Below, piece after piece: positions 10,900 to 27,302 of a stretch of 32,848 nucleotides of DNA (positions are counted from its first letter, which is position 1; every line of letters begins with the position of its first letter). The stretch lies in assembly GCF_003334315.1 (NCBI RefSeq), contig NZ_QOWR01000053.1; one strand, given 5' to 3'. Position numbers and translations under genes: made by a program. The notes beneath the pieces were generated by a model. The model worked only from the letters and a program-made list of their open reading frames with translations. It did not search any database and was not told where the DNA came from. The DNA is from Escherichia coli (lineage in GTDB: Bacteria > Pseudomonadota > Gammaproteobacteria > Enterobacterales > Enterobacteriaceae).

Positions 10900-12336
10900 T
10901 TACACCCGTCCGTAGCGATCCGCGAAGCGCACCACATCATCCTCTTCGAGATAAGAGCCGGAGCGCACTTCAATTAAATCGAGCGGAATTTTCCCCGGGT
11001 TTTCCAGGCAATGCGTCGCCCCCAGCGGAATATAAATGGACTCGTTTTCACCAAGCAGTTTGATATCACCGTCGATAGTGACTTTTGCCGTTCCCGCGAC
11101 CACCACCCAGTGTTCCGCGCGGTGATGGTGCATCTGTACCGACAAGCCTTCGCCCGGTTTCACGGTGATGCGTTTCACCTGGTAGCGGTCGCCCGCGTCG
11201 ATAGAGTCATATTTGCCCCACGGGCGATAGACTTCGCGATGTACCCGATGCTCATGGCGACCATCGGCTTTGATCTGCTCGACCACTTTTTTCACATCCT
11301 GCACCGCGTTACGGTCGGCAATCAGCACTGCATCTTTGGTCTGCACTACCACCAGATCTTTCACCCCGACGGTGGTGACCAGGCCAGATTCGGCGTACAC
11401 ATAGCTGTTTTCGGTTTTGTGATTAATCACATCGCCGTGGCAAACGTTGCCTTCCGCGGTGTGGGTGCTGATCTCCCATAATGAAGACCAGGAACCGACA
11501 TCGCTCCAGCCCGCATCCATCGGTACCACAACGGCATCTGCCGTACGTTCCATGACCGCGTAATCCACCGACTCTTCCGGGCAGGCCAGAAACGCTTCTT
11601 CATCCACGCGAATAAAATCGAGATCCGGATCGACGGCGCTCATCGCTTTTTCACAGGCGTCGAGAATATCCGGGCGATATTTTTTCAGTTCTTCGAGATA
11701 GCGTCCGGCGCGGAACAGGAACATACCGCTGTTCCAGTAATATTCGCCGCTTGCCACATAGGCCTGAGCGGTTTCCAGATTCGGTTTTTCGACAAACTGC
11801 GCCACTTCAAAGGCCACCGTATCCTGCTCACCCGCCGACACTTCACCGCGACGAATATAGCCATAACCGGTTTCAGGTAGATCCGGCACAATGCCGAAGG
11901 TCACCAGCTTGCCCGCTTCGGCATATGGCATGGCATTACGCACGGCGGCACGGAACGCGTCTTCATCGGCAATCACATGATCCGCCGCCAGCACCAGCAT
12001 TAACGGGTCGCTCTCCGGGCTATGACGTTTTGCCGCCAGCGCCGCCAGCGCAATGGCAGGTGCAGTGTTACGCCCTGCCGGTTCGAGAATAATGTTCTCG
12101 GTGAGTTTGTTCAGTTGACGCAGCTGTTCCGCGACAATAAAGCGGTGCTGCTCATTGCAAATCACCACCGGGCTTTCGCACTCCACGCCGTTCAGGCGGC
12201 AGATGGTGGTTTGCAGCATGGTGAGATCGCCTTTCAGGCATAAAAACTGCTTGGGGTAAAGTACGCGGGAAAGCGGCCATAAGCGGCTACCGGAGCCACC
12301 TGCCATCACGACTGGATAGAGTTTCGACTGCGCCAT
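10900..12336 (-). CDS. cpsB: Mannose-1-phosphate guanylyltransferase CpsB (ManC)
   Basis: 478 aa, N-terminus [31 protein letters not shown] (nucleotidyltransferase motif) with a C-terminal cupin-type domain. Confidence 0.93.
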
Positions 12337-12338
12337 AA

Positions 12339-13562
12339 TTATCCCCGAATATCATTTATAAATTGACGTAACACGTTCTCTTTATCGAGCGTGCGTTCGG
12401 CATATTCACGTGCCACCGTGTTGTGTTTGGGCAGCAGGAGCGCCTGACGAATCCCCGCCACCAGCGCCTCGACCGATTCCGGTTCTACGCAAACCGCAAT
12501 GCCCGGAAAGGTTTCGCAAAGCTGCCCCAGTTCTGTGTGGGCTTCTGCGGTAATCACCGCGTTACCGCCTACCGCCAGAATATTGGTCAGTTTCGACGGC
12601 AATACGGCATCTGCCGCGCCGCGTTTTTGCACCACCAGATGGCAATCGCCCATCTTCAGCAGTGCGGGTAAAGCGTCATACGATTGCAGCGGGAAAAATT
12701 GCATGTTGCGCAGTCCACGCTGCTGCGCCATTTTTTCCAGCCGCGCTTTGCCGCCGCCCTGCCCGACAATGGCAAAAATCAGCGGTTCATCGCGCAGGCG
12801 ATCGGCAGCTTCAATAACGTTTTCCAGCCCCTGCTTTTCACCAATATTGCCGGAGTAAAGAATGATTTTTTTGTTATCCGGCAGGCCAAGCTGGTTACGA
12901 AGGGCATCAACATCGGCATCTGCAACATGCTGAAAACGGGCAATTTCCGACCAGTTGGGGAAGAAAATGACGTTTTCCGCCGCCACGCCTTTTTCGATGG
13001 CTTTATTCATCATCGAACGCGAAATCGTGGAGACGTTATCGACGTTATGCAATCCGCTACGTTCGAACGCCGTTGCCAGCTGTGCCACTTTGCCGCCTTT
13101 GCCTTTTCCGGCAAGGCCCAGCCCCAGCATGGCGTCCACTTCGTAATCCTGAATATGCAGCACGGTACGCGCACCAGAGAGTTTCGCCAGCAGGCGCATT
13201 CCCGGCGTGCAAAACAGCGTTGGCACCACGCCGATAATGCGATCCGGCTTCCAGCGACGTTGCGCCATCAGAGGAAAGAAACTGCTGACGGCAAAACTGC
13301 TGAGATGTAACAGGCGTTTCAGGGTGCTCGGCTGTTTTGGCACGTACAGCGGGCAGCGCCACACCGTGGCGGCCCCCTCTTCTCGTTTGTAGCGCCAGGC
13401 GGAATAGTTCTCACCCACCTGCCATTGCGGGTAGTAAGGCGGTGCGGTAATGACCCGCACCTCATGACCTTGTGCCGCCAGCCATTCCACCATCTCGCCG
13501 GTGTATTTGCCGATGCCGGTTAACTCCGGCGAGTAGTTAATGCCGTAGACCAGTATTTTCAT
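12339..13562 (-). CDS. wcaI: Colanic acid glycosyltransferase WcaI
   Basis: 407 aa, [35 protein letters not shown]; position between cpsB and gmm. Confidence 0.9.
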
Positions 13563-14041
13563 AATCCGGGTACTCCGGCACGCTTCTCAGCGAGAAAATA
13601 GGCGCGGCTGTTAGCGTGAACATCGTTACTGGCGAGCAGCGCGTCCGGCGTCAGCCAGCGGTAATCGTCATGCTGCTCATCCGGCAGTAACAGCTCTTCT
13701 TCCGCTACTCTGAAGCGAAAACCGAGCACCACATAGTGAGTGGTGAAATCCGTGCCGGAGAAGTTATCGTCATAAAAGTGCTGCCAGACACCGTAAAACT
13801 GGCCTGCTGTTATCGGCAGACGCAGCCCCAGTTCCGCCATCGTCAGCCGCTCAAATGCGGCTTCCAGCGTTTCGTCTTTCTGCACGCGCCCTCCCGGCAC
13901 AAACCAGTAACCCTGCGCCGGGCGGTTGGTTCTTTTGCCAAGCAGAAACTCGCCGCGACTGTTCTCGACAATAAAGTCGAGAGAGACAAGCGGTGTGGAG
14001 CGCACTACCGTGGCAAAGTCTTCCTGACGTAAAAACATCAT
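13559..14041 (-). CDS. gmm: GDP-mannose mannosyl hydrolase (Nudix) Gmm/WcaH
   Basis: 160 aa with Nudix-like segment [29 protein letters not shown]; 4-bp overlap with wcaI. Confidence 0.9.
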
Positions 14042-15006
14042 TACCCCCGAAAGCGGTCTTGATTCTCAAGGAACCACTGGTAAGTGCTGGCAAGCCCCGC
14101 TTCCAGTGAGATTTCGTGATACCAGCCAAGCTGATGCAGGCGCGTCACATCCAGCAGTTTGCGCGGCGTGCCATCCGGTTTGCTGGCATCAAAAACCACC
14201 CGGCCTTTGTAACCCACCACTTTGGCGATGGTTTGCGCCAGTTCACGGATGGTGCAGTCAACGCCCGTGCCGACGTTAATGTGCGACAACATCGGCTGGG
14301 TGTTTTCCAGCCAGACTTCGTGCGCCAGCTCCATCACATGAATGCTTGCCGCCGCCATATCATCGACGTGCAGAAATTCACGCATCGGTGTACCGCTGCC
14401 CCACACCACCACGTCCGGCGCATTCTGTGCCGTCGCCTCGTGGAAGCGACGCAGCAATGCTGGGATCACATGCGAATTACTCGGGTGGAAGTTGTCATGC
14501 GGGCCATACAGGTTGGTCGGCATGACCGAGCGGTAATCGCGTCCATACTGGCGGTTGTAAGATTCGCACAGTTTGATCCCGGCGATTTTGGCAATGGCGT
14601 AAGGCTCGTTGGTCGGCTCCAGCGTGCCCTGCAACAACTCGCTTTCTGCCATCGGCTGTTTTGCCAGTTTCGGGTAGATGCAGGACGATCCGAGAAACAG
14701 CAGTTTGTTCACGTCGTTCTGATGCGCGGCGTGAATGATGTTGCTCTCAATCATCATGTTCTGGTAGATGAAATCCGCCGGATAGGTGTTGTTGGCGACA
14801 ATGCCGCCCACTTTCGCCGCCGCCAGATAGACCTGGTCAATGCGTTCGCTGGCAAAGAAATCATGCACCGCGCGGCTGTCCAACAGGTTCAGTTCATCGC
14901 GGGTGCGTAATACCAGCTCCACATCACCGCGCTGTTCGAGCTGTCGCCTGATGGCGGAACCGACCATCCCGCGATGGCCAGCGATAAAAATGCGTTGTTT
15001 ACTCAT
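14041..15006 (-). CDS. fcl: GDP-L-fucose synthase Fcl (WcaG)
   Basis: 321 aa, [27 protein letters not shown] (Rossmann GxxGxxG) and a short-chain dehydrogenase/epimerase fold. Confidence 0.93.
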
Positions 15007-15008
15007 GC

Positions 15009-16130
15009 TTATGACTCCAGCGCGATCGCCACGTCGTAGCCGTGAGATTTCAGCAGAGAGTGTTTTTTCGCCGCTTCGAGGTCATTAGCCACCATTTCAG
15101 ACACCATCTCTCTGAGGGTGATTTCTGGTTTCCAGCCCAGTTTTTCATGCGCTTTGGTCGGGTCGCCGAGCAGCGTTTCAACTTCTGCCGGACGGAAGTA
15201 ACGCGGGCCAACGGCGATAATCACATCGCCCGGTTTAACGCCCGGCGCGTCATGCCCGGTGACGGAAACCACAATGCCCTTCTCTTCAACGCCCGTGCCT
15301 TCAAAGCGCAGTTTGATGCCCAGCTGTGCTGCCGCCATTTCCACGAACTGACGTACGGAGTACTGAACGCCGGTCGCGATAACGAAATCTTCCGGCTGTT
15401 CCTGTTGCAGCATCATCCACTGCATTTTTACGTAGTCTTTGGCATGGCCCCAGTCACGCAGGGAGTCCATATTGCCGAGGTACAGACACGACTCCAGCCC
15501 CTGGGCGATGTTGGCGATTGCGCGGGTGATTTTGCGGGTAACGAAGGTTTCGCCGCGGCGCGGGGATTCATGGTTAAAGAGAATACCGTTACAGGCGTAC
15601 ATGCCGTAGGATTCGCGGTAGTTAACGGTGATCCAGTAGGCGTACAGTTTGGCGACCGCATATGGAGAGCGCGGGTAGAACGGCGTGGTTTCTTTCTGCG
15701 GAATTTCCTGCACCAGACCGTACAGTTCAGAGGTGGAAGCCTGATAGAAACGGGTTTTCTTTTCCAGACCGAGGAAGCGGATCGCCTCGAGCAGGCGTAG
15801 CGTACCCATCGCATCGACGTCTGCGGTATATTCCGGTGACTCAAAAGAAACCGCAACGTGGCTCATTGCGCCCAGGTTGTACACTTCATCCGGCTGCACT
15901 TCACGCAAAATGCGCGTCAGGTTGGAGGTATCACTCAGGTCGCCATAATGCAGATGGAATTTCGGGTTGCAGGTGTGCGGATCCTGATAAATGTGATCCA
16001 CGCGCTCGGTGTTGAATGACGATGCACGACGCTTAATACCATGTACCTCGTAACCTTTTTCCAGCAGAAACTCTGCCAGGTAAGAACCGTCTTGTCCGGT
16101 TACACCGGTGATGAGAGCGACTTTTGACAT
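15009..16130 (-). CDS. gmd: GDP-mannose 4,6-dehydratase Gmd
   Basis: 373 aa, [48 protein letters not shown], a highly conserved Gmd N-terminus. Confidence 0.95.
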
Positions 16131-16156
16131 GTCTTATTCCTCTGTATTTTTTGAAT

Positions 16157-16705
16157 TTATTCAGTTTCAACGCGTTCGCGTATCACCACTGCGGGATTCC
16201 CCCGGCAAACCACATTTGCCGGAAGCGATTTAAAAACACTGCTTCGCGCCCCCACGACGGTGCCGTCGCCGATCGTGACGCCAGGGGCAACAAAAACATC
16301 TGTCGCCAGCCAGCATTTCTCGCCAATCACAATAGGCGTGGCGTTAATGGTGAAATGTTGACTTGCATGGTCGTGGCTACCGGTGCATAAATAACTTTTT
16401 TGCGATATCACCGAATGTGCGCCAATGGTTATTTCACCGAGGGTATATAAATTGACGTCATCGCCGACCCACGCGTAATCACCTAAGGTTAATTTCCACG
16501 GATAGGTAATTTTTACTGACGGACGAATAACTACGTTTTTTCCTATTTTTGCTCCGAATAAACGTAATAAAAAAGCCCGCCAGCGATACAATACTTGTGG
16601 CGACCAGGCAAATATTGTTGCCTGTACTGCCCACCATAATTGCACTTTAATAGCGTTGCCGCCCCGGAACCCTTTCGGCACCGAGAAACCGCTTAAATCC
16701 TGCAT
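16157..16705 (-). CDS. wcaF: Colanic acid acetyltransferase WcaF (hexapeptide-repeat family)
   Basis: 182 aa with hexapeptide-repeat segments (ITIGAHSVISQKSYLCTGSHD...VAPGVTIGDGTVVGARSSV). Confidence 0.9.
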   Translation of the reverse strand: MQDLSGFSVPKGFRGGNAIKVQLWWAVQATIFAWSPQVLYRWRAFLLRLFGAKIGKNVVIRPSVKITYPWKLTLGDYAWVGDDVNLYTLGEITIGAHSVISQKSYLCTGSHDHASQHFTINATPIVIGEKCWLATDVFVAPGVTIGDGTVVGARSSVFKSLPANVVCRGNPAVVIRERVETE

Positions 16706-16720
16706 CGTTTTCCCTTATAT

Positions 16721-17467
16721 TCAGCTTTTGTTATATAAGGCTTTCGTCTTTGAGGTAGTACGTTGGCGTAAATGCCAGGATAATTCTGCCCAGAAGCCAG
16801 GCACATGTAATATCTGCCGTTGGACTTTTTTGGCGTCAGCACACAATTCCATATTATTGGTGGTTGATACCCCACCCATGGAAAATTCAGACACCAGGCC
16901 ATTGAGTTTTTTAAATGCATAACCTGCTTTATACATTTTAGCTGCCAGCGCGTAATCAGAAGAAACTTTATATTCCAGGTCATAACGCCATTTTTTCAAA
17001 CCGGATACCGGGAAAAATATCGCCTGATGGCTGGCGGGCAGGCTGTGATAAATATACCAACCCGGTTTAGCACTACGCTTAATTTTATGCCCGTCGCCAA
17101 AATCCAGCAGCGCATCGCCGGTGATCATCACGTTATCTTTTTGCATTTTTAACTTACGAACAAAATTTGCGGCATCCTGATGAAAAATATCGCCCGAATT
17201 GAGAAACAACGCGAACTTGCCTTGTGCCATCGCAATGCCCTTGTTCATGGCGTCGTAGATACCGTTATCTGGCTCGCTGACAAAGCGTAGGTTATAGATA
17301 CTATTGAGATTCTCCAGATACTCACGGGTACCGTCGTTGGAACCGCCATCGACAACAATCCATTCGAAGCTGATATCGTCCGCCTGCGCCAGATGCGCCA
17401 GCGAGGCATGTGTTTTGACTATCCCTTCGAGGTTACGAAACGCGACAGTGATTATGCTAAGCAACAT
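16721..17467 (-). CDS. wcaE: Colanic acid glycosyltransferase WcaE (GT2 family)
   Basis: 248 aa, [20 protein letters not shown]...[12 protein letters not shown] (GT2 DxD-type motif). Confidence 0.9.
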
Positions 17468-17477
17468 GTTCTTATTC

Positions 17478-18695
17478 TTACCTCGTAATATTTAACGCTT
17501 TTCGCAAAATAAACGGACAGACGATTAAAAATGCATATTCCGGGCTAAATATCGAACCGGTAAAAAACAGCGAAACCGGAGTAAAAAGATATAATTGCAC
17601 GCGAAAATTGCGGTTATCACCAAAAGCGTTGATCATCATTTTTATCACTTTCCCCATGTACCACAGCGATAAAAACACCGCGAACCAGGAAAAATAAATA
17701 ATCAGCAGATACAAACCATTGTCTATGGTTTTTCCGACATCCGCACCGTTAAATATTCCGAATGATGCGACATATTCATAAAGTGAGCCAAATCTGACTA
17801 CACCGTCAATATGGGTCAAAGAATAACCGACCATCACCAGCGGACCGACAATACGATAATACGATGACGATCCTTCCGTACCTAAATCGCCCAGACGGGT
17901 GGAAATATAAGGAAACGCGATTACCACACCAACCAGGAATACAGCCAGAGAAATCAATGCTAACGGTAACTTCTTCTTAATCGCCTCTTTATTCAGATAT
18001 TGAAATGCCCACTCCAGCAAATAAAACAGGATAAAGGTCATAACCCCTGAAAACGATCCGGATAATATTATCCCTGCGAGAATCATAGCATCGGTTTTAG
18101 GCGTTTTGATACCAAACTGTTTGATGCTGAGCCAAATTGAGATTAATGCCAGAGCGAAAAATGCCGGTTCGAAATAAAGTGCTGTCGTGCGCTTGCCGCC
18201 GAATTTAATGAAATTCAGTACATAGCTGTTGCTGTAAATCAGATATTTCGAAATCGACTCCATAATACTGCTGCCGCCGGTGAGGATAATTTGCGCCATC
18301 TCCACCGCCGCCAGCGCCACCACCAACCCGACCACCAGATAAAAGAAACGTAATATCTTGCGATGGTTGTGTGGCGAAATCGTTTTAAAGCGAATACTCC
18401 ACACCATGCCAATAATGATCACAATATAGACAAACAGCATGGTTGAAGTGACGTATTTACTGGCATCCAACGACTGACCAAACAGATAGTTGAACGCCGT
18501 GAGTCCCGCACCAATCCCTAAGGCAATCATCAATTTTTTAACGCTGATGCGTTCTAAAAACAGCAGTAACAAGACAGGTAAAAAAGTGACGATAGTGATG
18601 GGGAAACTTTCACCAAGCTGGGCGATTTTGACGTTAACCAGCAGGTAGATCAGCGGCAGCAGCAGGTAGCTACAGATTCTGATAGAAGTTGACAT
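17478..18695 (-). CDS. wcaD: Putative colanic acid polymerase WcaD (Wzy-like)
   Basis: Multi-TM protein starting [26 protein letters not shown]; ATG at 18693-18695 chosen over the upstream start in the ORF track; AT-rich gene. Confidence 0.88.
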
Positions 18696-19887
18696 ACTCC
18701 TCCAGCATCTGTTGTCCACTGTAGGCGGCGCGGCTGCGTTGGCTGAACTCAGCCAGCGTGGTACCAAATATCGCCTGCGCGATTTCCGGTTTGCTTAACT
18801 GCACCAGTTGCAGCACCTCTTCTTCACTGACGGTTTTACCACCGGATTTTTGCAGCACTTCCCGCGCCGCATCGCTATGGGTGGCGATCACCGGCACGCC
18901 AATCGATAGCGCCTCACACAAAATCAGCGGGTAGTTATCGACGCGAGAACTGAACACCAGCGCATCCATTTGATTGAGCGCGCTCATCAACTTGCGCTTG
19001 TCAGTTTCAAAGCCGTGATTAACCACGTTGCCAGCGGTGAACGGCGAGAACTTACCAAAGGTATGCAGTTCAATTTTGTCGCCCAGCGCCATCATCTCAC
19101 GCACCAGTTGCTGGTTAGTCTTGCCGTCGTAACGCAGGTCATGCGCCACCACCGCGATTTTCGGCTTGCCCTGGGTTTCGCGCACCGGAGGCAAGTCCGC
19201 CAGAATCGCTTCGGTTGCCATATCAATACCATTATTGATAATCCGGCAACGCCCTGGCCCGTACAGACTATTGAAAGCGTCAGCCACATGCTGGCTGGGG
19301 GAAATAAACTGACAGCCCAGCGCCAGCATCTCGCGGAATAACTGGCGTTTGCCCGCCACCAGCTGGTGCGCGCGATCAATCTTCACCGGCGGATAGTTAT
19401 TTAAGGTCGGGCATTTCTGGCAGCCCGTTTTCCAGCCTTCGCAACCGTCGGTAAAGGCGCAGCGTCCGGTAACGCTCCAGTGGTCGTGCAGCGTCCAGAC
19501 CAGAGTGACATCCGGTTTGTGGTTTTTCACCTTTTCGCAAAAGCGCACCACGCTCTTAAGATTTAGCCAGTAGCTGTGCAGCACATGAAAATGCAGGACC
19601 ACTAGCCCCGGTGTGCGAGTAATGGTGCGATATAACTCATTGAAATTGCCAAACAGATCGCGATTAAATAGACGAAACAGGGCAATGTTCGCCATCGCGG
19701 TCATCCGCGGCGTATGTTTGATGACCTGCGGATAGTTTTGATGGCTGACGCTCTCTTTGCCGCCTTTGCCGTAACCGTAGACAAAATGTGACGCCAGCCC
19801 CTGTTGCAGCGCACGCTGGTGGAGATCTAACGCCACACCTGCTGCCCCGCCTTCCGCCAGTCGCACATTAAATTGCAAAATATTCAT
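18670..19887 (-). CDS. wcaC: Colanic acid glycosyltransferase WcaC
   Basis: 405 aa, MNILQFNVRLAEGGAAGVALDLHQRALQQG; its 3' end overlaps the wcaD start. Confidence 0.9.
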   Translation of the reverse strand: MNILQFNVRLAEGGAAGVALDLHQRALQQGLASHFVYGYGKGGKESVSHQNYPQVIKHTPRMTAMANIALFRLFNRDLFGNFNELYRTITRTPGLVVLHFHVLHSYWLNLKSVVRFCEKVKNHKPDVTLVWTLHDHWSVTGRCAFTDGCEGWKTGCQKCPTLNNYPPVKIDRAHQLVAGKRQLFREMLALGCQFISPSQHVADAFNSLYGPGRCRIINNGIDMATEAILADLPPVRETQGKPKIAVVAHDLRYDGKTNQQLVREMMALGDKIELHTFGKFSPFTAGNVVNHGFETDKRKLMSALNQMDALVFSSRVDNYPLILCEALSIGVPVIATHSDAAREVLQKSGGKTVSEEEVLQLVQLSKPEIAQAIFGTTLAEFSQRSRAAYSGQQMLEEYVNFYQNL

Positions 19888-20372
19888 TTAATTACCTTCA
19901 CTCGCGCTTTTTCTCCCACCACCAGCGCGTTGTCCGGGACAGAGTCGAGCACCACGCTGCCCGCACCCACGGTGACGTTGTTACCAAGCGTGATATCACC
20001 AAGAATAATGACGTTGGCACCGAGTTCGACGCCGTTGCCAATGTGTGGACATGCCATGTTATCGGCACCACGATTGCCGATAGTGACGCCGTGGCGAATG
20101 GTGAAATCATCCCCCGCCACCACGTTTTTATTGATCACTACGGCGTAACCGTGATGGATAGTAAAGCGGCGGCCAATGGTCGCGGCGGCCTGGATTTCAT
20201 AACCGAAAAAGCATTCGGTGATAATGCGATACAGCACCAGCAGCGGGGCCGCCCACAGATTGTTGAGGACGTTCTTTTTGCGCCACACCGAACAAAAATG
20301 AGCAACGCGATAGGCAAGAACCATGCAGCACGGGCGTAAACTCCAGCTGTTGGCACGCAGATCTTCCAGCAT
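19884..20372 (-). CDS. wcaB: Colanic acid acetyltransferase WcaB (serine acetyltransferase-like, hexapeptide repeats)
   Basis: Translation from MLEDLRANSWSLRPCCMVLAYRVAHF with hexapeptide repeats (IGNGVELGANVIILGDITLGNNVTVGAGSVV); ATG at 20370-20372. Confidence 0.88.
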   Translation of the reverse strand: MLEDLRANSWSLRPCCMVLAYRVAHFCSVWRKKNVLNNLWAAPLLVLYRIITECFFGYEIQAAATIGRRFTIHHGYAVVINKNVVAGDDFTIRHGVTIGNRGADNMACPHIGNGVELGANVIILGDITLGNNVTVGAGSVVLDSVPDNALVVGEKARVKVIK

Positions 20373-20374
20373 CT

Positions 20375-21214
20375 TTAGCGCCCCCAAATACCATCAGCCA
20401 GACGTTTGCCGTTACGCACCGACAGCAGCGTCAGCAAAGTGCGCCAGGTCATACGTTTATTGCGGATCTGGTAGAGGGTAAACAGCTGATATTTTTTGCT
20501 AGCGCGGTCGAATTTGTCTTTGTGCTTGCGGTAAAAGTGGAAATATCCGGAGAATTTTTTCGGTGACGAGGTGATCTGCATTTCACCGTGATTGATATGC
20601 AGGATCTGCGTCGCTTCTTCCACTTTCCACGGTTCGCCATATTCCACCACCATCCGCAGGAAGATGTCGTAATCCTGTGCCGCTTTCAGTTCGGTATCGA
20701 ACAAACACTCTTTGAAACGCCATGCCCAGGTAAAGACCTGATTGCCAATGATATTGCGTTTATAGAACAGGCGGCGTGAATACGGCGATTTGGGATACAG
20801 TGGCAAACTTGCCGGTTGGGAATAGACTTCACCCTGGCAAACGTAATCGTTAGCGTACAAAAAGGCGTGAGTGACCAGTTGCTGTTTATGGGCGAGGAAG
20901 ACGCTCAGACGGTTGGGTGTCCATTCATCATCATCATCGATCCCGGTGATGTATTCCCCTTGCGCCAGCATAATCGCCTGGTTACGCACCGCGCACGCCC
21001 CGCTGTTAATGTCGTTGTGAATGTAGGTAATACGCGGATCGTTGAGGGCGCTGACGTACTGTTGCAGTTGTTCCCAGGAGGTGGAGCAATCATCCACGAT
21101 GATCATCTCCCAGTTGCTGTAGTCCTGGCGCAGGACCGATTTTATCGCCCGAATCGCCAGTTGTTGGCGGTTCCAGGTCGGCATATAGATTGAGATCAGC
21201 GGATTGTCTTTCAT
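20375..21214 (-). CDS. wcaA: Colanic acid glycosyltransferase WcaA (GT2 family)
   Basis: 279 aa, MKDNPLISIYMPTWNRQQLAIRAIKSVLRQDYSNWEMIIVDDCS, a GT2 N-terminal signature. Confidence 0.9.
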   Translation of the reverse strand: MKDNPLISIYMPTWNRQQLAIRAIKSVLRQDYSNWEMIIVDDCSTSWEQLQQYVSALNDPRITYIHNDINSGACAVRNQAIMLAQGEYITGIDDDDEWTPNRLSVFLAHKQQLVTHAFLYANDYVCQGEVYSQPASLPLYPKSPYSRRLFYKRNIIGNQVFTWAWRFKECLFDTELKAAQDYDIFLRMVVEYGEPWKVEEATQILHINHGEMQITSSPKKFSGYFHFYRKHKDKFDRASKKYQLFTLYQIRNKRMTWRTLLTLLSVRNGKRLADGIWGR

Positions 21215-21224
21215 AGGTTTTTCT

Positions 21225-21306
21225 CCCGGCTTATGAGCTGGTTTGCTTGCCGGATGCGGCGTGAGCGCCTTATCCGGCCTACGGGGCGGTGCGAATGCAG
21301 GCGTCG
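21225..21306. repeat. REP-like palindromic element in the wzc-wcaA intergenic region
   Basis: gccggatgcggcgtgagcgccttatccggcctacgg... matches the REP consensus family (gccggatg...cttatccggcctac). Confidence 0.8.
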
Positions 21307-23469
21307 TTATTTCGCATCCGACTTATATTCGTATTCGTAATAGCCATAATCCTGATACGCGCTGGCGCGGCGGAAGATGGAGTTCAGAATCACCCCTTTC
21401 ACCGGAATACCGTTTTGCTCAAAGCGGCTCAGACTGGTTTCCACTTCTTTCAATGTGTTGACCGCATAACGCGCCACCATTAACGTGGTTCCAACATGAC
21501 GACCAACAATTGCCGCATCGGTCACTGCCAGAATCGGCGGCGTATCAATCAACACCAGGTCATAGTTTTTACTCGCCCAGTTCACCAGTTCGGCAAAGCG
21601 TTCGCTCATCAACAGTTCAGAAGGATTTGGCGGCACCTGACCGCGCGGGATCAGGTCAAATTTGGCAATAGAGGTCGGTTTAGCTGCGGTAGTAATATCG
21701 CCCTGACCAATCAGAATTTCCGACAGGCCATTGACGTTATTGGTGCCCAACAGCTCATGGGTGTAGCCTTTGCGCATATCGCAGTCGATCAACAACACCC
21801 GTTTATTGGTCTGGCTGATCACTGCCGCCAGGTTGGCGCAGACAAAGGTTTTACCGATTGACGGGCTAACCCCGGTCATCATCAACACATTGTTCTGCGC
21901 CTGCATCATCGCGAAGTGCAGACTGGTACGAAGACTGCGGATGGCTTCAATCGCCAGATCGGTTGGATTCCCCACCGCCAGTAGCTGGCTCTGTTTATAG
22001 CGTTTAACCCCTTTGATGGTTTTGACGCTATCGCGCGCTTTCTGCCACTCCGACAGCGGGATGCTGGCATAGACGCTGATACCGTGTTCTTCCAGCACCT
22101 GTGGGCTTTCGATGCCGCGATTAAACAACGAGCGCAGCAGTACACCCACGATAGAAAGCATCAGGCCGAGGATAATCGCCCCAAGGATAATCAGCCCTTT
22201 CTTCGGTTTCAGTACACCAGGCTGGGTGATTGCCGGGTCAACAATGCGCACATCGCCGACGGTGCTGGCTTCGGTGATTTTCAGCTCCTGCTCTTTATTC
22301 AGCAGTTGCATATAGACCTGCTGACCAGACTCGACATCGCGGGTCAGGCGCACAATCTCCTGCTGGGTTTTCGGCATCGCCGTTACGCGACCGTTAAGTT
22401 TGGCTTTCTCTTCTTCCAGCGCCTGCCGTTTCTCCAGCAGCGTGCGATACGCCGGGTGAACTTTGGTGTACAGCTTGGAGATTTCCGCTTCTTTAAAGGT
22501 CAGTTCGTTCAACTGTGCGTCGATGTTCACCATCGAATCGAGCACCGCTTTCGCTTCCAGCGGCAGATCAACAGAATCTTTATCCTGACGGAAGGCATTC
22601 AGTTTGTTTTCAGCAACATCGAGGCGGCTACGTACTTCCGGTAACTGTTGCGCGAGGAAAGCGAGGCTTTTCGACGCTTCCGCCGATTTGCGCTCAATAT
22701 TTTGTTCCTGATAGTTACGGGCGATGCTGTTAAGAATGTCGCGGATCTGTTCGCGATCTTCACCGGTATAAGTCAGGCTCAGTACGCCTGCGTCTTTGCC
22801 GTTCTCCGTTACCGTCAGGCTGTTTTGCAGTTGGTTGATCATCCCCAGCGTGGAGTATTTGGTGACGGTAAACTCACTGCCCGGGCTGGCGTGAATAGCT
22901 TCAACCATCAGCGTGACGCCTTCTTTTTTCAGCATCTGGCCCGCTTGCCCACGGGCGCTAAAGCCGCCATCACTGCTCAAAGTGTAGTTTTTGTTGTCCA
23001 GCACATTAAGTGTAAACACCTGATCCGCCATCTCTTTCGGGCGGTTAAAGGTGGTCACTTTCACCGTCTCGTTCTGGCGTCCCATCAGGCGATCCCAGCC
23101 CGCACCGAAAATCGGGAACGTGTTTTTGCTCACCGCAATATCGAGGTCGAGATCGTCCACCGTTTTACCAAGCACCAGACGCGAACGAATCAACTGGATC
23201 TCGGCGTCCGATGCAGGCGGTTTGTTGGCTAATGCCGAACCAATGTCCTGCACTAACGAATTGCCGCTGTTTTGCTCGATTTGTACCAGTGCGTCGGCAC
23301 TATAAATCGGCGTAGCGAAGAAGGTGTAAACCACGGCACAGAGGGCGAATACAGCGGTGATGCCAATCACCCACCAGCGCGCTTCAATGATGGTGCCGAC
23401 CAGGCGACCAATATCGATTTCATCACTGCCCGTTACCGGAGCGGCATGTTGTTTTACTTTTTCTGTCAT
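21307..23469 (-). CDS. wzc: Tyrosine autokinase Wzc (polysaccharide co-polymerase, BY-kinase)
   Basis: Translation from MTEKVKQHAAPVTGSDEIDIGRLVG; contains Walker A (GVSPSIGKT) and a C-terminal tyrosine-rich tail (YQDYGYYEYEY); ATG at 23467-23469. Confidence 0.93.
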   Translation of the reverse strand: MTEKVKQHAAPVTGSDEIDIGRLVGTIIEARWWVIGITAVFALCAVVYTFFATPIYSADALVQIEQNSGNSLVQDIGSALANKPPASDAEIQLIRSRLVLGKTVDDLDLDIAVSKNTFPIFGAGWDRLMGRQNETVKVTTFNRPKEMADQVFTLNVLDNKNYTLSSDGGFSARGQAGQMLKKEGVTLMVEAIHASPGSEFTVTKYSTLGMINQLQNSLTVTENGKDAGVLSLTYTGEDREQIRDILNSIARNYQEQNIERKSAEASKSLAFLAQQLPEVRSRLDVAENKLNAFRQDKDSVDLPLEAKAVLDSMVNIDAQLNELTFKEAEISKLYTKVHPAYRTLLEKRQALEEEKAKLNGRVTAMPKTQQEIVRLTRDVESGQQVYMQLLNKEQELKITEASTVGDVRIVDPAITQPGVLKPKKGLIILGAIILGLMLSIVGVLLRSLFNRGIESPQVLEEHGISVYASIPLSEWQKARDSVKTIKGVKRYKQSQLLAVGNPTDLAIEAIRSLRTSLHFAMMQAQNNVLMMTGVSPSIGKTFVCANLAAVISQTNKRVLLIDCDMRKGYTHELLGTNNVNGLSEILIGQGDITTAAKPTSIAKFDLIPRGQVPPNPSELLMSERFAELVNWASKNYDLVLIDTPPILAVTDAAIVGRHVGTTLMVARYAVNTLKEVETSLSRFEQNGIPVKGVILNSIFRRASAYQDYGYYEYEYKSDAK

Positions 23470-23471
23470 TC

Positions 23472-23915
23472 TTATACCTGCTCTGCGTTCAATGCCTGCG
23501 CCCACTGGCGGGCAGACCGTTCAAGTAATGTGTACACCGCTGCAAACGTTTCCCGGCTTTTGCGATACGGATCGGGGATTTCACATTCGTTATCCCAGTG
23601 ACCAAACAGCATCACTTTGCCGCGCATCTCCGGTGCCATCTCGCATAAGCGTTCGATATGGCGCTTTTCCATGGTCAAAATCAGGTCGTAGTTGCGACAC
23701 AGGCGGCGGCTGATTTGACGGGCACAGTGACCTTCCAGAGACAGTTGATGTTCTGCGGCGACGCTGATAGCAGTAGGGTCAGCGCCCTTACCGACCAGCG
23801 CGCCGAGTCCAGCGGACTCCACTTTCAGCTCCGGGTGATAACGTTGCAGTAAGCGTTCCGCCGTCGGGGAACGGCAAATATTGCCGACACAGACAACTAA
23901 GATGTTGTTAAACAT
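23472..23915 (-). CDS. wzb: Low-molecular-weight protein-tyrosine phosphatase Wzb
   Basis: 147 aa, MFNNILVVCVGNICRSPTAERLL (CX5R P-loop phosphatase motif). Confidence 0.95.
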   Translation of the reverse strand: MFNNILVVCVGNICRSPTAERLLQRYHPELKVESAGLGALVGKGADPTAISVAAEHQLSLEGHCARQISRRLCRNYDLILTMEKRHIERLCEMAPEMRGKVMLFGHWDNECEIPDPYRKSRETFAAVYTLLERSARQWAQALNAEQV

Positions 23916-23920
23916 GACGA

Positions 23921-25060
23921 TTACCAGTTATGAATGTCGCTGGCTGTATCCGTCATGTAACGGACACCGCTAATAGTTGGCAGCAACTGATTGATCAGAC
24001 GGTTCCAGCGGGAAACCGGGGCGGTGGTGACATACACCACGTCATAAGGTTGCAGGCGGAATTCTGTCGCCATCACCAGCGACGTGGCATCGGACATATC
24101 CAGCTGGTAGATATTGGCAATCTTGCCGTTACGCCCGCCCTCGCCTTTCAGCGGACGAATGACAAAGATGCCGCTGGCGTTGGAGGTGGTCATGTCGATG
24201 CCTTCAGCATTGCCCAGGGCTTCGGTCAGGGTCATGCCGCTAAAGTCCATTTTCAGGGTGCTCTGTTTCTTCACTTCACCCATCACAAATACTTTCAGAT
24301 CATCATTACGCGGCACGTAGAGAATATCGCCGGGATAAAGCAGTCGGTTCTGATTGAGGTCGCCGTTTTGCATCAGCGCCTGCAAAGAAATGCGTTCTTC
24401 ACGACCATTGTGTGTTAGCACCACGTTGCGCCAGTCAGCGGTGTCGGTCAGGCCACCTGCGGCGTTGATGGCGTCGAGAATGGTCAGTGGTACGTTGGTG
24501 ATCGCCTGTTGGCCGGATTTATTCACCTGTCCGGAGATATAGGCCTTTTGTGAGCGGAAGGCGGCGATATTAACGTCCACCTGCGGGTCAGCGATGTACG
24601 TCGCTAAGCGCCCGGTAATATCACTGCGGATTTCAGCGAGCGTTTTCCCCACCACGTGAACCTTGCCGATATACGGGTAAAACATAGTGCCGTCAGGCTG
24701 TACCCAGTTGCCGGTGTCGCTGGAGCTGCGGTACTGACCGGCTGGCGTGGTGAGTTCCGGGTGATCCCAGACGGTGACATTAAGAACGTCCCCCGGCCCG
24801 ACGCGATACTGGTAATTCGCGATCTCGCTTTCCAGCGTCATATTGGGGCGCGCTACGTTGGGTCGTGGACGTAATTGATCAATCAGGCGCGGGGTCAACG
24901 GATAAACATTCACCATTTTGTCGAGATCGAAATCAGCGTCCTGCTGTTTGATGACGTCTTTGCCCATCGTCGACATATTGCTGCCCGGAAGTACTGTGCA
25001 ACCGCTTATCAAGGTTACTGACACCAATAATGGCATCAATTTCATTTTGGATTTCATCAT
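23921..25060 (-). CDS. wza: Outer-membrane polysaccharide export lipoprotein Wza
   Basis: 379 aa, lipoprotein signal [21 protein letters not shown]; polysaccharide export (Wza) family; first gene of the colanic acid operon. Confidence 0.95.
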
Positions 25061-25238
25061 TGTTTATTTATCACTTTGGCAGAGTAATTATCCTGTGCAC
25101 TATTAATAGCAATGTCGCCATGCACATTTACCTTGCAGTTAATTGAATAAAAATTTAACTGGCATCAGTCCTAAAAAAATTGATTTCATCCGCAGGCTAT
25201 TGACAGAATAATTCAGACTGGTCTTTCAGGCATCCAGA

Positions 25239-25277
25239 CACGCTACCGCCCCTGGCTTTTTAGCTACCAATACACTG
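25239..25277 (-). promoter_or_regulatory. JUMPstart/ops element in the wza 5' leader (RfaH-dependent antitermination site for the colanic acid operon)
   Basis: cacgctaccgcccctggctttttagctaccaatacactg is near-identical to the element at 873-911 and contains the reverse complement of ops GGCGGTAGCGTG at 25239-25250. Confidence 0.85.
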
Positions 25278-25464
25278 ATTTAGCTTAATTTTTCACACCC
25301 TCTCAGCATACAGTCGTTGATGAGAAAGGGTTATTGCGGAAATTAACTTCCGAATATAAGGTGACATTATGGTAATTGAATATTAGCTCTCCAATAATGT
25401 AGGAGGAAGTGTTACAGCTAACGGAATAGCAGGCAAGGTAACAATTCGGCGATTGGCTATTTTT

Positions 25465-25478
25465 AAGAATTATATTAA
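25465..25478. promoter_or_regulatory. Candidate RcsAB box upstream of the wza promoter
   Basis: taagaattatatta resembles the RcsAB box consensus as I recall it (TaAGaatatTCctA) and lies about 400 bp upstream of the wza start, upstream of the JUMPstart. The match is partial and no matrix scan was done. Confidence 0.35.
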
Positions 25479-25718
25479 GTGTCATTCAATATGGTTTTTA
25501 GGAGTTTCTTTAGGTTGACAATATTTAATATTGCGTCTCAACATGCGATATTTCTTAAATAATGTTTTATCATTACCACTTTTAATTCAGGGATAATGTG
25601 AGGTTATTATCCTCAAATAATATGAGATAAATAGTGCTGCAACATTGCATTTTTGCCCCGATTTATCCATGATCGAATTGTGACATTTGTCATACAACGA
25701 ATAGGTTTTGTACTTACT

Positions 25719-27302
25719 ATGGAATGGATTGCCGATCCGTCTATCTGGGCCGGGTTAATCACGCTGATTGTGATCGAACTGGTCCTCGGCATTGATAACC
25801 TGGTCTTTATTGCCATCCTCGCCGAAAAACTACCGCCGAAGCAGCGCGACCGCGCACGGGTTACCGGGCTGTTGCTGGCGATGTTAATGCGCCTGTTACT
25901 GCTGGCGTCAATCTCCTGGCTGGTCACCCTGACTCAACCGCTATTCAGCTTTCGCTCGTTTACCTTTAGCGCCCGCGACTTAATCATGCTGTTTGGTGGT
26001 TTCTTCTTGTTGTTCAAAGCCACGATGGAGCTGAACGAACGGCTGGAAGGGAAAGACAGCAATAACCCCACGCAACGCAAAGGTGCGAAGTTCTGGGGGG
26101 TGGTGACACAAATTGTGGTACTGGACGCCATCTTCTCACTCGACTCGGTGATTACCGCCGTCGGGATGGTCGACCATTTACTGGTCATGATGGCCGCCGT
26201 GGTTATCGCTATTAGCCTGATGTTGATGGCCAGCAAGCCGTTAACGCAATTTGTTAACAGTCACCCGACCATCGTTATTCTCTGCTTAAGCTTCCTGTTG
26301 ATGATTGGCTTTAGCCTGGTGGCAGAAGGTTTCGGCTTCGTCATTCCGAAAGGCTACCTGTACGCTGCCATTGGTTTCTCGGTGATGATCGAGGCGCTCA
26401 ATCAGTTGGCTATCTTTAACCGGAGACGTTTTCTTTCCGCTAACCAGACGCTGCGCCAGCGGACTACCGAAGCGGTAATGCGCCTGCTTAGCGGGCAAAA
26501 AGAAGATGCGGAACTGGACGCCGAAACCGCGTCCATGCTGGTGGATCATGGTAACCAGCAGATCTTTAATCCGCAGGAACGGCGGATGATTGAGCGGGTA
26601 CTTAATCTTAACCAGCGTACCGTCAGCAGCATTATGACGTCGCGCCACGATATTGAGCATATCGATCTCAACGCGCCGGAAGAAGAAATCCGCCAGTTGC
26701 TGGAGCGAAATCAGCATACGCGGCTGGTGGTTACCGACGGTGATGACGCAGAAGATTTGCTCGGTGTTGTTCACGTTATCGACCTGCTACAACAGTCTCT
26801 GCGCGGCGAACCGCTCAACCTGCGGGTGTTGATTCGCCAGCCGCTGGTGTTCCCGGAAACCTTGCCGTTGTTACCTGCCCTGGAGCAGTTCCGTAATGCC
26901 CGCACGCACTTTGCTTTTGTGGTGGATGAGTTTGGCTCGGTGGAAGGGATTGTGACATTAAGTGACGTCACTGAAACCATTGCCGGTAACTTACCGAACG
27001 AAGTGGAAGAGATCGACGCCCGCCATGATATTCAGAAGAATGCGGACGGTTCCTGGACGGCGAATGGTCATATGCCGCTGGAGGATCTGGTGCAATATGT
27101 GCCGCTGCCGCTGGATGAAAAACGTGAATATCACACCATTGCCGGGCTGTTGATGGAGTATTTGCAGCGTATTCCAAAACCTGGCGAAGAAGTTCAGGTG
27201 GGGGATTATTTGCTTAAAACGTTGCAGGTAGAAAGCCATCGCGTGCAGAAGGTGCAGATTATACCGCTGCGTAAGGATGGCGAGATGGAGTACGAGGTGT
27301 GA
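25719..27302 (+). CDS. yegH: Inner membrane protein YegH (TerC-family membrane domain with CBS pair and CorC/HlyC C-terminal domain)
   Basis: Translation from [39 protein letters not shown] (TerC-like) followed by CBS-type and transporter-associated regions; ATG at 25719. Confidence 0.9.

Follow-up and report, generated by a model that had tools for sequence, protein, structure and literature searches.

The 32.8-kb stretch of DNA analyzed here (the window) carries the Escherichia coli colanic acid (wca/cps) gene cluster on its minus strand, and within this operon we find an AT-rich block made up of the last two-thirds of wcaD, all of wcaE and wcaF, and the 5′ end of gmd (∼50 codons). The block is ancient and conserved, and in every lineage tested its synonymous composition has a separate, lower steady state and is no fading relic. 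The presence of a coat of H-NS and StpA on the block in vivo rests on published chromatin immunoprecipitation (ChIP). The explanation we favor, with modest confidence, is that the block is a maintained AT-rich, H-NS-coated domain, in which silencing would proceed via a filament and AT-richness would be kept by selection or by a weaker GC-favoring force.

An AT-rich domain from mid-wcaD into gmd

The cluster is identified as that of colanic acid by its gene order, wza-wzb-wzc-wcaABCDEF-gmd-fcl-gmm-wcaI-cpsBG-wcaJ-wzxC-wcaKLM, between yegH and galF. To the left of the cluster the O-antigen cluster begins (rfbB, galF), and to its right lie yegH, asmA, dcd and udk. Gene boundaries were taken from the annotation of an identical RefSeq record: positions 15800-19200 are 100% identical to a Swiss soil isolate whose annotation agrees with the open reading frames (ORFs) of the window, and by it the gene names wcaF, wcaE and wcaD given in the first-pass annotation are correct. 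With a 3.4-kb query around the block, 4,812 of 5,426 complete E. coli genomes match at 95-99% identity and are annotated gmd/wcaF/wcaE/wcaD/wcaC. The features discussed in this section, with their GC (guanine plus cytosine) content and the GC content at first and third codon positions (GC1 and GC3) where relevant, are:

15981-18264, minus strand: synonymous-site AT-rich domain (low GC3), from wcaD codon ∼144 to gmd codon ∼50, placed by a change-point fit
16157-16705, minus strand: wcaF, hexapeptide acetyltransferase; GC 0.485, GC3 0.475, codon adaptation index (CAI) 0.28
16721-17467, minus strand: wcaE, GT2 glycosyltransferase; GC 0.455, GC3 0.502
17478-18695, minus strand: wcaD, Wzy-type colanic acid polymerase (Pfam PF27321); GC 0.426, GC1 0.419, fraction of F, Y, M, I, N and K residues 0.365
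25061-25718, minus strand: AT-rich wza leader/promoter region (wza-yegH intergenic); GC 0.348

An inspection by eye had suggested that wcaF-wcaE-wcaD and the wza leader are AT-richer than the neighboring genes, and the computed values confirm this for both. GC content is 0.438 at 16400-18700, compared with 0.555 for cpsG..gmd (9249-16130) and 0.533 for wcaC..wza (18768-25060), and it is 0.348 in the leader. The three genes of the block have the values listed above while the remaining cps genes lie at 0.51-0.565, and the minimum over 200-bp windows, 0.365-0.385, falls at 17421-17780. The dip is well past sampling noise (835 codons, GC3 0.50 versus 0.64). As a genome background we used 200 kb of the same strain, in which 1,908 sliding 2.3-kb windows have a mean GC of ∼0.516 with a standard deviation of 0.038. 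Against this background the block stands at the 4.1th percentile (z = -2.06) and the cpsG..gmd flank among the top 4.6% of windows. Since the block is only at about the 4th percentile and this flank at about the 95th, the contrast is two-sided: a moderately AT-rich block lies inside a moderately GC-rich operon.

The deficit is carried by both the proteins and their codons. When wcaDEF are compared with 12 flank genes, the GC difference is -0.135 at the first codon position, -0.014 at the second and -0.139 at the third, and because the deficits at the first and third positions are nearly equal, about half of the dip reflects amino-acid composition and half synonymous choice. F, Y, M, I, N and K residues are abundant in WcaD and WcaE, and the GC content expected from the protein sequence under genome codon usage is 0.457 for WcaD (z = -2.8) and 0.476 for WcaE (z = -2.0), where the genome mean is 0.530. 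The deficit of wcaF is wholly synonymous, the amino-acid composition of WcaF being normal. The sliding-window GC analysis was accompanied by a CAI analysis, with ribosomal-protein and elongation factor genes as the reference set, and CAI is low for wcaF (0.280, 6th percentile) and wcaD (0.319, 14th) and average for wcaE (0.398, 49th). A/T-ending codons are preferred across all codon families of the block, and rare codons are enriched 2.5-fold (76 versus 29 per 1000). GC3 is at the flank level or above it in the genes of the five other glycosyltransferases as well as in wcaB, wcaK and wzxC; the last of these, the flippase gene, which encodes 12 transmembrane (TM) segments, has the highest value, 0.718.

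To follow the dip beyond E. coli, we fetched 80 loci from ∼23 named genera and mapped 16 cluster genes on each, which gave 63 complete loci. The block is present and syntenic in all 80, and WcaD retains 83-94% amino-acid identity across Enterobacteriaceae genera. The dip is found in 63/63 complete loci. Relative to 11 flank genes, GC3 is offset by -0.146 in wcaD (negative in 63/63), -0.137 in wcaE (63/63) and -0.158 in wcaF (62/63), whereas the flank genes each stay within ±0.04, and in 53 of the 63 loci all three genes lie under every one of the 11. Raw GC is 0.423-0.490 for wcaD..wcaF and 0.511-0.598 for the flanks, and the lowest 1-kb GC window of the operon sits within wcaD..wcaF in every complete locus. 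The 550 bp upstream of wza have a GC content of 0.34-0.44 in 73 loci.

The edges of the domain were mapped by a two-change-point fit to the mean GC3 per codon across 64 taxa. GC3 is 0.483 inside and 0.667 outside the fitted interval (15981-18264; support intervals 18246-18309 and 15954-16026), whose raw GC in E. coli is 0.443, and the step is seen in 64/64 taxa at the wcaD edge and in 63/64 at the gmd edge. The synonymous block is therefore offset by ∼400 bp from the 16400-18700 interval proposed from inspection, and it does not follow gene boundaries: codons 1-143 of wcaD have a flank-like GC3 of 0.645 and the remainder 0.463, a difference present in 64/64 taxa. The partition is thus positional, running from mid-wcaD into gmd, and not by gene function, and edges that lie inside genes point to a DNA-level rather than a per-gene property. 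As is typical of Wzy-type polymerase genes, wcaD encodes a multi-spanning membrane polymerase and has a lower GC content and more rare codons than the rest of the cluster. Low GC is not, however, laid out here as is usual for such genes, where it covers and is confined to the polymerase and usually the flippase: the start of wcaD is flank-like, the domain reaches gmd, and wzxC is GC-rich.

H-NS occupancy and the promoter within wcaD

The first-pass annotation had also predicted that these genes would be preferential H-NS targets, and this is borne out by published experiments, namely ChIP sequencing (ChIP-seq) in strain CFT073, an H-NS-repressed promoter in wcaD, and derepression in an hns mutant of enteroaggregative E. 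coli (EAEC) 042. In CFT073, the cluster genes on the H-NS-bound list, which has a cut-off of 0.07, are wcaD (0.36), wcaE (0.39), wcaF (0.31), wcaM (0.14) and a short ORF of the wza leader (0.82); no other cps gene is listed (PMC9765446 Data set S1). StpA values are similar to those of H-NS and the signal is gone in an hns stpA double mutant; H-NS also lies over the wza promoter, and it takes the double mutant for RfaH to engage the leader with its ops element (PMC9765446). Among the genes that respond most strongly to loss of hns in EAEC 042 at 25 °C are wcaF (derepressed 582-fold), fcl, wcaE, gmm, wcaD, wcaI and gmd, with genes from wcaD onward derepressed 290-580-fold and genes upstream of wcaD absent from the printed top list (PMC7582179). 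Taken from that printed top list only, the pattern fits an H-NS-controlled start within wcaD. The block also has the AT-rich stretch that characterizes H-NS regions (0.438 over 2.3 kb against ∼0.517 in the genome sample, with a 200-bp minimum of 0.365). In vivo occupancy (0.31-0.39 on wcaF, wcaE and wcaD in CFT073) and hns derepression (330-580-fold in EAEC 042) are both on record for other E. coli strains, and H-NS targeting of the block is thereby already published.

The promoter and the conserved stretches of wcaD around it are:

18044-18124, minus strand: published H-NS-repressed intragenic promoter fragment within wcaD, in sense orientation, matched exactly by the primers of PMC7229825
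18082-18090, minus strand: extended -10 of the wcaD promoter, TGCTATGAT
18108-18143, minus strand: synonymous-constraint stretch 1, wcaD codons 185-196 (residual -0.269, amino-acid-normalized)
18130-18145, minus strand: 16-mer of wcaD invariant in 64 taxa, TAATCTCAATTTGGCT
17742-17777, minus strand: synonymous-constraint stretch 2, wcaD codons 307-318, with the FGIFNGAD motif (residual -0.287)

The two published primers match 18102-18124 and 18044-18061 without mismatch. This promoter is one of six model H-NS-repressed intragenic promoters, for which in vitro activity and repression by H-NS were demonstrated (PMC7229825). Across 64 taxa its extended -10 (TGnTATGAT) is kept whole in 61. Both positions of the element that are free of coding constraint are at least 95% conserved, one of them in a codon that specifies A, G or V depending on the taxon, and we estimate post hoc that the chance of both being so conserved is ∼0.02. 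The upstream AT-tract, which was found necessary in PMC7229825, is not conserved in these taxa. Judged from these alignments, the conservation of the -10 hints that the ‘spurious’ wcaD promoter may be real, though it is not proof. A paper on a dCas9 screen in which the term ‘internal promoter’ occurs is not about this operon.

Both synonymous-constraint stretches pass a 1% family-wise threshold set by permutation (-0.257), and their synonymous sites are near-invariant over the 64 taxa despite a gene-wide synonymous divergence (dS) of ∼1.2. The rare codons TTA, GGA and ATA are kept in both, with GGA and ATA near 17742-17777, and stretch 1 is located 20-60 bp upstream of the extended -10. Third positions that are at least 95% conserved make up 13.9% of wcaD codons 151-405, compared with 2.6-6.4% in wcaC, wcaE, wcaF and fcl. 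As far as sequence comparison can suggest, the stretches may represent a promoter-associated element, a regulator site or translational pausing. One antisense frame is open for at least 50 codons through the stretches in all taxa; we rejected it as a gene, as nothing beyond the open frame argues for one. A scan of 15500-19200 against Rfam returned a sub-threshold Caenorhabditis elegans small nucleolar RNA model as its sole match (E = 0.25), which we attribute to chance.

The wza leader contains the ops element, GGCGGTAG, at 25243-25250 on the minus strand. Altogether the window holds four matches to the ops core, with 0.7 expected by chance. A second exact core, again GGCGGTAG, lies at 12569-12576 on the minus strand, within wcaI and on its sense (non-template) strand, and further cores lie at 877-884 (the rfb JUMPstart, as expected) and at 25830-25837 (within yegH, antisense). 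The annotation places a hypothetical ORF of 150 nt within the leader, at ∼25369-25518 on the plus strand (25570-25719 in L001, the locus of the near-identical strain MEI4O1-23). C_RS29790 of CFT073, which equals this ORF in length and position, has the maximum H-NS occupancy of the locus, the value of 0.82 given above.

These observations lead us to propose how the block would act. An H-NS filament on the block, possibly together with a filament on the leader, would keep the interior and the distal part of this long, normally silent, Rcs- and RfaH-dependent operon from being expressed, blocking the internal wcaD promoter and hindering elongation; the silencing would be overridden by Rcs activation and by RNA polymerase modified through ops/RfaH. 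The AT-richness itself would persist either because it is selected for silencing or because a weaker GC-favoring force acts on H-NS-coated, rarely expressed DNA. A stronger form of this proposal, which we hold only tentatively, is that the block is a selectively maintained internal regulatory domain, kept throughout the history of those Enterobacteriaceae that have it: an H-NS/StpA nucleation patch, perhaps bridging to the wza leader ∼7 kb away, that gates the distal genes and contains a genuine conserved promoter. If that tentative form holds, the gated genes would be those for sugar nucleotides, the initiating transferase and the flippase, and the promoter would consist of the extended -10 at 18082-18090 and the invariant upstream element at 18130-18145.

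Steady state or relic

The substitution process differs in the block, and not merely its present state. Synonymous sites have reached saturation and change as quickly in the block as in the flanks (dS from E. coli 1.1-2.2 and 0.9-1.8, respectively), yet the block is still 0.10-0.15 lower in GC at its fourfold sites. Pairwise synonymous distance matrices of block and flanks are correlated (r = 0.86) and have nearly the same means (0.427 versus 0.420). We polarized substitutions by parsimony in 18 non-overlapping pairs of sister species, each with an outgroup. In these triplets, synonymous changes in the block number 620 from AT to GC and 807 from GC to AT. Per AT site, the AT-to-GC rate is 0.066 in the block and 0.109 in the flanks, ∼40% lower (Fisher p = 2e-35) and lower in 18/18 triplets, while the GC-to-AT rate is 0.090 versus 0.081. 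The equilibrium GC3 implied by these rates, 0.43 for the block and 0.57 for the flanks, agrees with the observed offset. The lower AT-to-GC rate persists at fourfold sites, at both kinds of twofold site and in Ile codons. Neighbor-base mutation context was considered as a neutral cause, and it does matter, yet the gap between block and flanks remains inside each context (Mantel-Haenszel odds ratio 0.56).

Distant relatives of WcaD provide a second view of the history of the block. The family is a small one: 225 representatives reach E ≤ 1e-3 in a set of 1.84 billion proteins. Four distant clusters, whose hosts have GC contents of 35, 41, 48 and 58%, again place the polymerase beside a WcaC-like GT4, a GT2 and a hexapeptide acetyltransferase, and in two of them (L088 and L092) gmd comes after this wcaC-D-E-F module. 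The module GC3 in these clusters is within ∼0.08 of its neighbors, without a strong dip, and the dip is thus no inherent property of these proteins. The closest non-orthologous WcaD relative (46% identity) lies in the colanic-acid-like cluster L088 (GCA_022258985.1, 35% GC), which runs wzi-wza-wzb-wzc-wzx-GT4-pyruvyltransferase-wcaC-D-E-F-gmd-fcl-gmm-wcaI-wcaJ, then an inverted wcaM, then gnd. Between E. coli and L088, D, E and F are 44-64% identical and the flank genes 47-65%, and a separate import of D-E-F from a low-GC L088-like cluster was rejected, as the identities are no higher than those of the flank genes.

The first-pass annotation had read the AT-richness as a sign of mosaic ancestry, with the polymerase and some transferases of different origin from the nucleotide-sugar genes. 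Stated fully, the donor of wcaD-E-F would have been lower in GC than that of the export and nucleotide-sugar genes, and incomplete amelioration would have left the dip. The atypical composition and the low CAI of wcaF and wcaD are what such a transfer would leave, WcaD-family genes do occur in low-GC organisms (L088 and L089, 35% GC), D-E-F act as a linked module in unrelated clusters, and within-gene edges are the expected trace of an old homologous replacement; at a dS of ∼1.2, a large starting offset need not have fully decayed. We nonetheless consider this account improbable, and as a reason for the present composition it is not supported. All ∼23 genera have the dip, which places any transfer before they radiated; the distribution of the block is neither patchy nor phylogenetically discordant, divergence being equal and the distance matrices congruent; and its boundaries lie within the coding sequences of wcaD and gmd rather than at mobility or tRNA genes, repeats or cassette limits. 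Nor is there the AT-to-GC excess of ongoing amelioration, since GC-to-AT changes outnumber the reverse and the per-site AT-to-GC rate is below that of the flanks in every triplet. D, E and F are no nearer to the low-GC L088 than the flank genes are, the wcaC-D-E-F-gmd adjacency is itself ancient (L088, L092), the partition is positional, and neither the remaining transferases nor the flippase share the AT-richness. A foreign origin that is very old and precedes the split of these genera is possible, but what maintains the AT-richness at present is something else. We regard as similarly unlikely that the dip arises from gene-specific effects of protein and translation, in which a hydrophobic, low-copy Wzy polymerase with rare A/T-ending codons would combine amino-acid composition with selection for slow or low translation. 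The low GC expected from the WcaD and WcaE sequences, the half of the deficit that falls at first codon positions, the enrichment of rare codons and the conservation of TTA, GGA and ATA within the most conserved WcaD motifs all speak for it. However, the first ∼143 codons of wcaD are flank-like, beyond wcaD the low-GC3 domain takes in the genes for a soluble GT2 and for an acetyltransferase as well as ∼50 codons of gmd, the wcaF deficit is synonymous in full, the 12-TM flippase of the same operon has the highest GC3, and in distant clusters the WcaD homologue is at most slightly AT-richer than the genes beside it.

A more serious contender, although still doubtful, is non-adaptive persistence. 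Here the H-NS-coated block would be rarely transcribed or recombined and would feel less of a GC-favoring force, by which we mean biased gene conversion or selection for GC-ending codons acting against an AT-biased mutational equilibrium, so that the AT-rich state sustains itself without being selected. Fixation of AT-to-GC changes is lower while that of GC-to-AT changes is the same or slightly higher, the wcaE ratios (0.77 and 1.27) fit a simple shift in such a force, the codon shift is uniform over all families rather than aimed at particular codons, and H-NS occupancy is documented. Against this, in wcaD and wcaF the AT-to-GC rate is halved and the GC-to-AT rate unchanged, which resembles a subset of A/T sites held fixed, a point weakened by polarization bias; highly conserved third positions are in excess in wcaD codons 151-405; overall synonymous divergence is equal in block and flanks; and as one operon holds all the genes, differences in transcription level are not obvious. 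On adaptive versus non-adaptive maintenance the data are thus mixed, with wcaE fitting a force shift and wcaD and wcaF looking partly fixed.

Several points weigh against a maintained, H-NS-coated domain as we propose it. The adaptive role of the maintenance is a proposal, and a weaker GC-favoring force would also lower equilibrium GC3. Parsimony polarization is biased at these divergences, although in GC-rich sequence the bias would reduce the difference between block and flanks rather than produce it, and the 63 loci behind our counts are phylogenetically related rather than independent events. The lack of a strong dip in the distant relatives leaves room for an old historical cause. H-NS represses rcsA, and the derepression seen in EAEC 042 could be indirect through RcsA. 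The H-NS occupancy of the block in CFT073 (0.31-0.39) is moderate beside that of the leader (0.82), and the occupancy and derepression data come from other E. coli strains (CFT073 and EAEC 042) rather than from this strain or other genera. Finally, a scan for canonical sigma-70 promoters across 12000-23000 found 6 sites where 10 were expected, without enrichment in the block, and is uninformative.

Related systems and the wider cluster

Several side observations concern the rest of the cluster. The GC content of wcaM (2238-3632) is also low, 0.476, with a deficit that is all amino-acid composition (GC3 0.561, synonymous residual ∼0). The 26-bp overlap of wcaC and wcaD (18670-18695) has the top nucleotide conservation among the 14 genes analyzed, as expected from two reading frames and translational coupling. 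No mobility genes are annotated anywhere in the cluster in the identical record. In the wcaK-wzxC spacer (6141-6319), a REP/BIME-like unit of ∼96 bp occurs once in the window (∼6201-6292) and in five tandem copies in MEI4O1-23 (L001 5957-6520), which accounts for the 385-bp difference in spacer length. Some E. coli strains (avian pathogenic E. coli O1 and AZ148) carry an insertion of ∼70 bp between the wcaD stop and the wcaE start (L093 1669-1748, corresponding to 17468-17477 of the window; …gtgagcgaggaaaaccaacgcacatgcagtttgaagtatgacgggtat). We take this inserted gtgagcgaggaaaaccaacgcacatgcagtttgaagtatgacgggtat to resemble a short ERIC/IRU element.

About 75 E. coli genomes match the 3.4-kb query at 60-80% identity, and 614 of the 5,426 have no match. 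We considered the 60-80% class as a potentially informative variant, but the one example examined, E. coli PEC414 (L007 10295-12376), is a divergent (78% identity), decayed, IS1-disrupted colanic cluster that is uninformative on composition: IS1A lies in wcaD, a deletion reaches from there as far as wcaM, and three further genes, wza, wzc and wcaC, have become pseudogenes. The assembly CACSKA010000001.1, titled ‘Chryseobacterium sp. 18061’, contains an enterobacterial colanic cluster (WcaD 91% identical) with a layout nearly identical to that of ‘Citrobacter sp. 18056’ from the same project, and is probably mislabeled or contaminated.

The block is a feature of a known kind in a textbook operon, and published H-NS ChIP tables already show the AT-rich patch. 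The block resembles the H-NS-silenced genes with intragenic promoters (PMC3923964; PMC7229825), with which it shares an AT-rich, H-NS-bound coding region and the AT-tract/extended -10 promoter in wcaD, unchanged in the window. Those papers regard such genes as products of horizontal acquisition and their promoters as spurious, whereas wcaD is a core component with 83-94% identity over ∼23 genera and an intact -10 in 61 of 64 taxa. The ops/RfaH operons that are counter-silenced against H-NS-StpA filaments are a further parallel, as the window has the leader ops at 25243-25250, the CFT073 wza-wcaM operon is a cryptic RfaH target and wcaD, wcaE and wcaF are bound by both proteins; the internal wcaD-F patch is not singled out in that work, nor is its evolutionary conservation, and a block to elongation at the patch is our own suggestion (PMC9765446).

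In O-antigen and capsule clusters, as described by Reeves and colleagues, central regions (wzx, wzy and glycosyltransferases) are low in GC relative to the nucleotide-sugar pathway genes. The colanic block is similar in that the polymerase and adjacent transferases are AT-richer than the nucleotide-sugar genes of the same cluster. Unlike the O-antigen central regions, which are hypervariable between strains and plausibly exchanged, it is conserved and syntenic, its edges lie within genes and the flippase of its cluster is GC-rich. Amelioration of transferred DNA, as set out by Lawrence and Ochman in 1997, could explain a compositionally atypical segment and is said to predict an excess of AT-to-GC changes together with per-site rates equal to those of host genes; the block shows neither sign.

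The comparative result, a stable and conserved AT-rich H-NS domain within a vertically inherited cluster, is a modest addition to this picture, and it carries a caution. Low GC together with H-NS binding is routinely taken as horizontal acquisition, and promoters inside such DNA as spurious; here the same signature occurs without a phylogenetic sign of separate origin and at compositional steady state. If the maintenance is adaptive, cells can keep AT-rich H-NS landing pads in core operons as regulatory devices, which would bear on how colanic acid synthesis is shut off at 37 °C and in rich medium. If the block is indeed an internal regulatory domain, a textbook target of xenogeneic silencing would be vertically inherited core-operon DNA that is kept AT-rich.

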